A DNA stretch of 64,000 nt from contig JAXEEC010000056.1 in assembly GCA_034104285.1 (NCBI GenBank), forward strand, positions 84,439-148,438. Direction: 5' to 3'. Source of the DNA: Candidatus Onthovivens sp. Its GTDB lineage: Bacteria; Bacillota_I; Bacilli_A; RFN20; CAG-826. The stretch's first letter is position 1; every line of letters begins with the position of its first letter. The position numbers and the translations under genes were made by a program. This document shows positions 41,445-41,587 of the stretch, one piece after another. The notes under the pieces were generated by a model. That model was not told the origin of the DNA, searched no databases, and was given only the letters and a program-made list of their open reading frames with translations.

Positions 41445-41520
41445 GGCGGGCCTGAGACTTGAACTCAGAAAAAAACGCTTTTAGAGAGCGCCGTGGCTAC
41501 CATTTCACCAGCCCGCATCA
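41445..41520 (-). tRNA. suppressor tRNA, anticodon CUA (reads UAG)
   Basis: Minus strand gcgggctggtgaaatggtagccacggcgctCTCTAAAagcgtttttttctgagttcaagtctcaggcccgc. 7-bp acceptor, 5-bp anticodon stem ggcgc/gcgt(t), loop c-u-C-U-A-a-a, T-arm ctgag/ttcaagt/ctcag, short variable loop (type I). Confidence 0.7.
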
Positions 41521-41558
41521 AAATGGGAATTTTTTATTCCCATTTATTTAACATATAT

Positions 41559-41587
41559 ATTATAACAAAAATTTTTATTTTTGTCAA
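41559..41587 (-). promoter_or_regulatory. consensus sigma-A promoter driving the suppressor tRNA
   Basis: Minus strand TTGACAAAAATAAAAATTTTTGTTATAATATATATG. Perfect TTGACA-N17-TATAAT, ~35 nt upstream of the tRNA 5' end. Confidence 0.65.

Follow-up and report, generated by a model that had tools for sequence, protein, structure and literature searches.

A 64,000-nt stretch of contig JAXEEC010000056.1, referred to as the window at its full length, was analysed for its use of the codon TAG and for a suppressor tRNA(CUA) that it encodes. The window is best explained as part of a phage genome of ~160-180 kb from human-gut metagenomes, with a subset of its genes in code 15, TAG being read as glutamine, and with a self-contained suppressor cassette that supplies glutamine at TAG. 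The probability assigned to this reading is about 0.87. Its core, namely a sense TAG, glutamine as the residue and a phage tRNA(CUA) with its own consensus promoter, is strongly supported by the sequence comparisons described below. The cassette is fully delimited and spans ~225 nt, in the following order of transcription:

41559 to 41587, minus strand: sigma-70/sigma-A-type promoter, TTGACA-17-TGtTATAAT, 12/12 matches
41521 to 41545, minus strand: leader hairpin AAAUGGGAAU-AAAAA-AUUCCCAUUU, lying after the -10 box and before the tRNA; -10.8 kcal/mol, z = -4.0
41444 to 41517, minus strand: amber-suppressor tRNA, anticodon CUA (ARAGORN; Rfam tRNA 39.5 bits, gathering threshold 29)
41392 to 41442, minus strand: minimal HDV-like (HDV, hepatitis delta virus), theta-type ribozyme motif linked to the suppressor (own descriptor scan)
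41364 to 41390, minus strand: intrinsic terminator, a 12-bp stem followed by a T-run, which closes the tRNA-ribozyme unit

The window has a G+C content of ~31% and carries nearly all its genes on the minus strand. When open reading frames (ORFs) were called with TAA and TGA as the only stops, 79 minus-strand ORFs of at least 70 amino acids (aa) were obtained, and 22 of these contain a total of 43 in-frame TAGs. Setting aside three doubtful cases (40932, 30269/30245 and 25648/25498) leaves ~38 TAGs in 19 ORFs; an earlier note on this DNA had counted at least 35. All the TAG positions listed in that note were recovered; it had given the low coordinate of each codon. When standard-code ORFs of at least 80 codons were grouped by stop codon, the frames outlast TAG but not TAA or TGA: the median in-frame extension to the next TAA or TGA is 82.5 codons past TAG versus 9.5 past TAA and 5 past TGA, and extensions of at least 50 codons follow 10 of 16 TAG-ended ORFs versus 6 of 74 TAA/TGA-ended ones (Fisher p = 7e-6). 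With TAG read as sense, stop-to-stop ORFs of at least 100 codons cover 91.5% of the minus strand instead of 78%. Under code 11 the endolysin, the PIN-PhoH gene and several radical-SAM genes come out in pieces.

The TAGs are unevenly distributed among genes (permutation p = 0.001), with 57 TAG-free ORFs where 48 are expected, and the replication and nucleotide-metabolism genes of the window are TAG-free. TAG makes up 6.5% (43/663) of the glutamine-type codons. Since only about one quarter of the ORFs carry TAG, the claim of a "genome-wide" reassignment was too strong, although TAG as a sense codon stood. Within genes the TAG positions show no N-terminal bias, and the enrichment of C as the base after TAG (10/38) is not significant (p = 0.12).

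The residue at TAG was determined by codon comparison with four independent metagenome contigs of 122-180 kb, reached through full-length endolysin homologues and 89-93% identical to window positions 8000-31500. TAG faces TAG in 72 comparisons, CAA or CAG in 43 and another codon in 1. Thus 43 of 44 swaps, spread over 16 sites, are to glutamine codons, and the sole departure lies in a poorly aligned endonuclease gene. Gene ends behave differently: the 76 aligned terminal stops in the relatives are TAA (41) or TGA (35), never TAG, and they exchange TAA and TGA only. Two further loci, L007 and L008, are only ~80% identical to the window over 35-49.6 kb, with insertions and deletions; most of their apparent TAG swaps are misalignments, so that only the hand-checked SHMT gene and position 40932 were kept. 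The SHMT gene is TAG-free in the window and adds two more glutamine sites: L007 has TAG (in AFL[TAG]PGD) against CAG in the window, and L008 has TAG against CAA. The gene calls of the public collection for the relatives likewise take TAG as sense, and their full-length endolysin product is not reproduced under table 11.

The earlier note had placed the endolysin TAG exactly at the Gln of an LQPGD motif. Among 112 diverged homologues, 43 have K in the column before PGD and 38 have Q. The second TAG column is Q in 96 of the 112. Alignment of paralogues within the window (radical-SAM B and precursor-like genes) was uninformative about the residue at 21-37% identity. Overall, TAG as glutamine, which the earlier note had called probable, is settled as firmly as sequence alone allows. 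The principal genes with sense TAGs are:

19335 to 20267, minus strand: endolysin, PG_binding_1 plus NlpC/P60-like fold; sense TAGs 19745, 19688 and 19529
27477 to 28595, minus strand: 372-aa protein, called a beta-helix fibre in the earlier note; sense TAGs 28532, 27953 and 27767
25750 to 26598, minus strand: N-terminal part of PIN-PhoH; sense TAGs 26145, 26133, 26073 and 26052, all four within the interdomain linker
8671 to 10400, minus strand: two genes of homing-endonuclease type; five TAGs in 10400-9639, four in 9642-8671 (GIY-YIG)
22515 to 23840, minus strand: radical-SAM protein; sense TAG 22781, which is CAG in 4/4 relatives

Site by site, endolysin TAG 19688 is CAA in three relatives, TAG 27767 of the fibre-like gene is CAA or CAG in 4/4, and TAGs 9471 and 9198 of the homing endonucleases are CAG or CAA. 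The PIN-PhoH TAGs are kept in four relatives, which also have TAG where the window has CAA at 25932 and 25830. Full-length endolysin homologues exist; the structural model (predicted local distance difference test score 93) matches NlpC/P60 at the fold level, a domain weakly supported by sequence alone. Pfam bore out the labels proposed earlier for PIN plus PhoH, two radical-SAM proteins, PG_binding_1 of the endolysin and two GIY-YIG endonucleases. The 372-aa protein has no match in Pfam or PHROG, and the same ORF is called in relatives.

The suppressor tRNA was found by both ARAGORN and Rfam. The ends differ from the 41445-41520 first given, where no strand was stated: ARAGORN spans 75 nt, 41443-41517, and the minus-strand gene ends at 41443 or 41444 depending on whether C74 (at 41443) is included. 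CCA is not encoded. The cloverleaf has G18G19, a T-loop UUCAAGU, a 5-6-nt variable region, G10 and A37, with a U1.C72 mismatch and discriminator G73. An aberrant tRNA, suggested by Rfam misses in whole-window and 241-nt searches, was considered and dropped; 141 nt gave 39.5 bits, so that the earlier misses were filter artefacts.

With the neighbouring DUF2828/DUF7788 protein as the query, 16 related IMG/VR loci were retrieved. Seven of them carry tRNA(CUA): L007 and L008 (93% and 86% protein identity) at the same place, and five diverged loci. An exact-protein look-up with the DUF2828 protein matched no record. The alignment of the five diverged homologues has compensatory changes at 13 of 21 pairs, with 93% of cells paired, a level that none of 500 shuffles reaches. 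In these five suppressors position 1:72 is always unpaired, and G73, G2-C71, G10 and U35 are invariant. Position 3-70 is C3-G70 in the window, G3-C70 not being kept. More distant tRNA(CUA) relatives encode CCA and have no promoter of their own.

Glutaminyl-tRNA synthetase (GlnRS) of E. coli recognizes U35, G73, a weak or unpaired 1:72, G2-C71, G3-C70, G10 and A37. The G73, unpaired 1:72, G2-C71 and G10 of the suppressors resemble this set. The textbook comparison is the E. coli supE suppressor and the tRNA-Gln/GlnRS identity set. Like supE, the phage tRNA has a CUA anticodon that keeps U35, a weak or unpaired 1:72, G73, G2-C71, G10 and A37; unlike supE, it has C3-G70 for G3-C70, A38 for U38 and U.C for U-A at 1:72, and it is borne by a phage and is no mutated host gene. 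For comparison, the window also encodes an ordinary glutamine tRNA, one of the 8 tRNAs found by ARAGORN, all on the minus strand:

47157 to 47230, minus strand: tRNA-Gln(UUG) with U1-A72, G73 and an encoded CCA

The suppressor promoter is identical in L007 and L008, and its -35 hexamer shares bases with the stop codon (TGA) of the DUF2828/DUF7788 gene upstream of it. The earlier note had recognized TTGACA-N17-TATAAT and called it the strongest promoter in the window; the match is perfect, but it is not uniquely the strongest, as two further perfect copies occur (three in all: 41587-41559, 18778 before gyrB, and 10876). Sites with at most one mismatch number 11 versus 1.56 expected, and near-consensus TG-extended promoters precede gyrB, SHMT, a restriction/methylase pair and similar genes. 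The leader is 35 nt long. Its hairpin, with a 10-bp stem, is present in L007 and L008 with the stem unchanged and the loop A>G. A repeated operator or terminator was rejected as its identity, the hairpin being a single occurrence in the window save for a similar terminator at 50704-50722, and the terminator scan did not call it. The 88-nt trailer (41355-41442, terminator included) folds at -23.2 kcal/mol, and no shuffle folds equally well.

Short hairpins are also seen 4-15 nt before the 5' ends of several tRNAs (Sup, the suppressor, Pro, Leu, Ser and Gly). In Sup and Pro the hairpin sits between promoter and tRNA. Such pre-tRNA hairpins could serve in processing, in stabilising the RNA or as attenuators. 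Their positions are:

~41521-41545, 46184-46200, 46398-46417, 59390-59420 and 63680-63700: hairpins upstream of tRNAs

A feature absent from the earlier note is the missing CCA together with a ribozyme motif directly 3' of tRNA(CUA). The segment layout, drawn after the Supplementary Data of Kienbeck et al. (2024, PMC10879173), reads on the minus strand GGTATC/AT/GTAGGA/GCC/T/TT/TCGT/GGC/GATACT/AT/TTTAAA/CTAA/TCCTAC. The predicted cut lies 5' of G41442 and would leave a tRNA ending in G73-C74. The descriptor scan found three such motifs in the window and no match in 200 random 64-kb sequences. The other two follow tRNAs as well:

46959 to 47084, minus strand: tRNA-Thr(UGU) without CCA (47010-47084), then a theta-type motif (47009-46959); ARAGORN and descriptor scan
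46047 to 46177, minus strand: tRNA-Pro(UGG) without CCA (46101-46177), then a theta motif (46100-46047); ARAGORN and descriptor scan

A ribozyme motif thus stands behind all three CCA-less tRNAs (Sup, Thr and Pro) and behind none of the five that encode CCA. Its G1 comes directly after C74 in Sup and Thr and after A73 in Pro. All three copies have nested P1/P2/P3, no P4, a G1.U at the base of P1, L3 of the form U-NN-NCGY and the catalytic C first in J4/2. In L008 both substitutions in the P2 helix of the Sup ribozyme keep the pairing. The two-bp P1.1 feature is present in the Pro copy as CC/GG.

Kienbeck et al. (2024, PMC10879173) found theta ribozymes beside tRNAs of phages, amber suppressors above all. 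The motifs of the window agree with them in beginning 1 nt after the 3' end of a CCA-less tRNA, in code 15, in a DRB0094-like ligase nearby, in the segment order P1/J1-2/P2/P3/L3/P3'/P1'/P1.1'/L4/J4-2/P2', and in the G1.U wobble, L3 = U-NN-NCGY, J4/2 = CUAA and lack of P4. They differ in that the outer P1.1 pair of the Sup and Thr copies is U.U while the published descriptor demands pairing, which places these two outside it and leaves the Pro copy alone as canonical. By its sequence, the Sup-linked element is a variant of the published theta motif and no strict member. Rfam gave no HDV-like match on the ribozyme region, and a scan of viral contigs for further ribozymes whose L3 is the variant GCCTTTTCGTGGCG returned chance matches only, among the matches listed. 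The accessible part of the supplementary tables of that study does not contain the exact sequences of the cassette.

Genes of RNA-repair type cluster around the suppressor tRNA (35339-43050 and 29140-30200, minus strand). Their products are a Ro/TROVE-like DUF2828+DUF7788 protein (PHROG 850), a nucleotidyltransferase of Pol-beta type, metallophosphoesterases, a DRB0094-like RNA ligase and a DEDD exonuclease, and farther along come a polynucleotide kinase and a phosphoesterase. Kienbeck et al. (PMC10879173) report a 140-fold enrichment of the DRB0094 ligase family in phages that carry theta ribozymes.

In the mechanism that we propose, host RNA polymerase would transcribe the suppressor cassette from the onset of infection, RNase P would trim the 5' leader of tRNA(CUA), and the ribozyme would cut after C74 to leave a 2',3'-cyclic phosphate. 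Host enzymes, or the RNA-repair enzymes of the phage, would have to heal this end and complete its CCA. The tRNA would then be charged with glutamine by GlnRS and would rival release factor 1 at UAG. Genes with TAG (the endolysin, the fibre-like gene, the homing endonucleases, PIN-PhoH, some radical-SAM and the precursor-like genes) would give full-length products only after enough mature suppressor had built up, and the TAG-free replication and nucleotide-metabolism genes could be translated at any time. The suppressor promoter shares its host-type sigma-70/sigma-A class with the promoters before gyrB and SHMT, which argues against late transcription, and transcription of the suppressor is probably early or constitutive. 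Late output of the TAG genes could still come about through accumulation or slow maturation of the suppressor.

Several points weigh against this reading. The glutamine identity is drawn from codon swaps and tRNA features, and among those features C3-G70 and A38 depart from the E. coli tRNA-Gln identity set. In the ribozyme motifs P1.1 is UU/AU in the Sup copy (one A-U plus U.U) and UC/GU in the Thr copy (one C-G plus U.U); with so weak a P1.1 the Sup-linked motif may be slow to cut or even inactive. The suppressor shares its promoter class with presumed early genes, which gives late timing no support, and SHMT, itself presumed early, has TAG in relatives, so that "early genes TAG-free" is a tendency and no rule. 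Scans of species genomes named neither a host nor, with it, a host genetic code. Finally, one TAG, at 40932, occupies a stop position, which makes the decoding ambiguous and no clean reassignment:

40930 to 41070, minus strand: 46-aa CxxC...CxxC zinc-ribbon ORF, ending in TAG (40932-40930)

This end is TAG in the window, TAA in L007 and a shifted TGA in L008. The nucleotidyltransferase that follows (40926-40120, PHROG 388) has its own ATG at 40926 with GGAGG 8 nt before it, and its homologues are 265-270 aa long and have no zinc ribbon. By homology, TAG 40932, one of the examples in the earlier note (as 40930), is not a sense codon and occupies a genuine stop position, even though none of the 76 aligned ends in relatives is a TAG. 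Read-through would join zinc ribbon and nucleotidyltransferase in one frame.

Such a site leads to the alternative that survives best, a phase-dependent, ambiguous decoding in which TAG would stop translation early and be partly suppressed later, giving truncated and then full-length products and some fusions. We put its chances a little short of even. TAG 40932, in frame with the next gene and replaced by TAA in L007, is the kind of codon it calls for, and the presence of TAG in ~25% of the ORFs fits it. It also follows the model of Borges et al. and the concentration-based switch of Kienbeck et al. (PMC10879173), who propose that the suppressor is "always on" and that its accumulation sets the switch. 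It would refine the suppressor-cassette reading without excluding it. Given the early-type consensus promoter of the suppressor, the phase with TAG as stop may be short.

A further reading, in which the cassette is a code switch gated by maturation and not by transcription, is considered unlikely. According to it the promoter may be of early type and constitutive and the tRNA only slowly chargeable. The 3' end may depend on a theta-type ribozyme with a P1.1 deliberately weakened by U.U, and the phage repair genes near the tRNA may heal the cyclic phosphate and finish the CCA. The zinc ribbon-nucleotidyltransferase fusion formed upon suppression may then act as feedback.

It is very improbable that TAG is read as pyrrolysine, Trp, Tyr, Lys or Glu. 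ARAGORN labels the tRNA "Pyl", distant homologues of the endolysin have K as often as Q in the xPGD column, and a Trp, Ile or Tyr isotype was predicted for ~30% of suppressor tRNAs by Kienbeck et al. (2024, PMC10879173). The reliable swaps, however, are all CAA or CAG and none is AAG, GAG, TGG or TAY, though each of these is one step from TAG, and G73, the unpaired 1:72 and G10 fit recognition by GlnRS. A tRNA-Pyl identity was rejected: the ARAGORN label reflects the anticodon only, and G18G19, the T-loop UUCAAGU and the 5-6-nt variable region rule out that architecture, in which the variable loop has 3 nt, the D-loop is very small and lacks G18G19, the T-loop is atypical and pyl genes lie close by. 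No pyl genes were found among the ~45 window proteins scanned.

The two remaining alternatives have almost no weight. We know of no bacterial host that reads TAG as glutamine. A host that itself reads TAG as sense, with the phage matching it, draws on the fact that the scans named no host, and it is opposed by the TAG-free replication genes, by the phage having its own suppressor and by the recoded codon appearing in ~90% of the genes of phages with recoded hosts (Borges et al.) versus ~25% here. That TAG is mainly a stop, the frames being pseudogenes, products of misassembly or split genes and the tRNA(CUA) incidental or a false positive, finds some footing in pieces individually open under the standard code, in PhoH and gyrB being truly split by insertions and in TAG 40932, and is already refuted by the codon comparison with relatives: the same TAGs are kept in five independent assemblies and swap to CAA/CAG only, frames run far past TAG but not past TAA/TGA, endolysin homologues are full-length, terminal TAG is 0/76, and the tRNA passes the Rfam threshold and covaries.

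Shine-Dalgarno sequences precede 52 of the 79 starts versus 6.7% of random positions, and the endolysin matches are Clostridia-like, which together suggest a Bacillota host. With such strong Shine-Dalgarno use a Bacteroidota host is unlikely, and the lineage is probably not a phage of that phylum. When endolysin homologues were sought in species genomes, a first scan gave no match and a second only L023. This contig (JAFRFD010000090.1, 28 kb), in a goat-ileum Methanobrevibacter metagenome-assembled genome, is the sole species-genome match of the endolysin family and is probably a mis-binned phage contig. The best match in a phage database had 4% coverage at 67% identity, and no close relative was found there.

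Some genes are split by insertions. The PhoH domain of PIN-PhoH (25750-26598 and 20326-20766, minus strand) breaks at profile position 62 and resumes ~5 kb downstream, and the gap holds an eight-gene cassette with a precursor-like protein, small ORFs, one radical-SAM protein and a related 461-aa protein; the arrangement is the same in contigs L001-L004. Similarly, gyrB (16105-18715, minus strand) is broken by a GIY-YIG homing endonuclease into 430 aa + endonuclease + 88 aa. The break lies elsewhere in L001 and L002 (580 aa + endonuclease + 115 aa), and L004 has no endonuclease; the endonuclease is a mobile-insertion polymorphism.

Other parts of the window have unusual contents. Three paralogous cassettes (59621-62852, 52391-55813 and 20823-25494, minus strand) each encode a ~200-aa protein, with a C-terminal tail rich in Ser/Thr/Asn/Cys, and two large radical-SAM-type proteins; from their sequences they look like phage-borne peptide-modification clusters of the kind that makes ribosomally synthesized and post-translationally modified peptides (RiPP-like). 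An 814-aa protein (30771-33215, minus strand) with major-vault-protein shoulder and repeat domains (PF11978, PF17795) adjoins an SPFH/Band-7 protein (33476-34348, minus strand), an unusual pair for a phage. The segment 48000-50000, with G+C up to 0.43 versus ~0.31 elsewhere and poor alignment with L007 and L008, appears to be variable or of recent acquisition; its ORFs are small and cysteine-rich.

Gut phages recoded to code 15 (TAG to Gln) were reportedly described by Ivanova in 2014. Code-15 gut phages with suppressor tRNAs and with TAG enriched in lysis and structural genes were set out by Borges et al. (2022, bioRxiv 10.1101/2021.08.26.457843) in the Lak, crAss-like, Garnet, Amethyst, Jade, Sapphire and Agate clades. 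The window resembles these phages in its TAGs in lysis and other genes and their avoidance in replication genes, in its tRNA(CUA) and in its gut-metagenome origin; it differs in having no RF2 (release factor 2) or GlnRS gene within the window. It comes near the Sapphire clade in the share of recoded genes (~25% here, 26% there) and in genome size range (Sapphire ~150-200 kb), the comparison being by these figures only. In crAss-like phages TAG as glutamine has proteomic proof (Peters et al. 2022, PMC9523058). The reassignment and the need for code-15 gene calling are the same here, but the lineage is another one, with no crAss-type similarity and with Shine-Dalgarno-rich initiation, and the decoding is read from the sequence. 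The phage phAss-1, or "Phassvirus" (136 kb, three suppressor tRNA genes; Babkin et al. 2023, PMC10607447), is likewise a large gut phage with suppressor tRNA and TAG in many characteristic ORFs; it differs in its size and its three suppressor tRNA genes, and the search of the phage collection gave no sequence similarity to it. In the theta-ribozyme survey of Kienbeck et al. Bacteroidota are the main host phylum, whereas Shine-Dalgarno use here suggests otherwise.

Each element of the system is thus already published: the recoding (Borges), its proteomics (Peters) and suppressor-linked theta ribozymes (Kienbeck). What the window means in practice is that annotation of this contig and its relatives needs code 15, since code 11 fragments the endolysin, fibre-like, PIN-PhoH, homing-endonuclease and several radical-SAM genes. 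It also contains its own control, in that sense TAG exchanges with CAA/CAG and terminal TAA with TGA, and the one TAG at a stop position marks an imperfect partition of decoding. The most interesting remainder is the P1.1-weakened ribozyme behind an early-type promoter, a possible maturation timer. With one canonical and two P1.1-weakened ribozymes side by side, the phage offers a test bed for how and when TAG turns from stop to glutamine.

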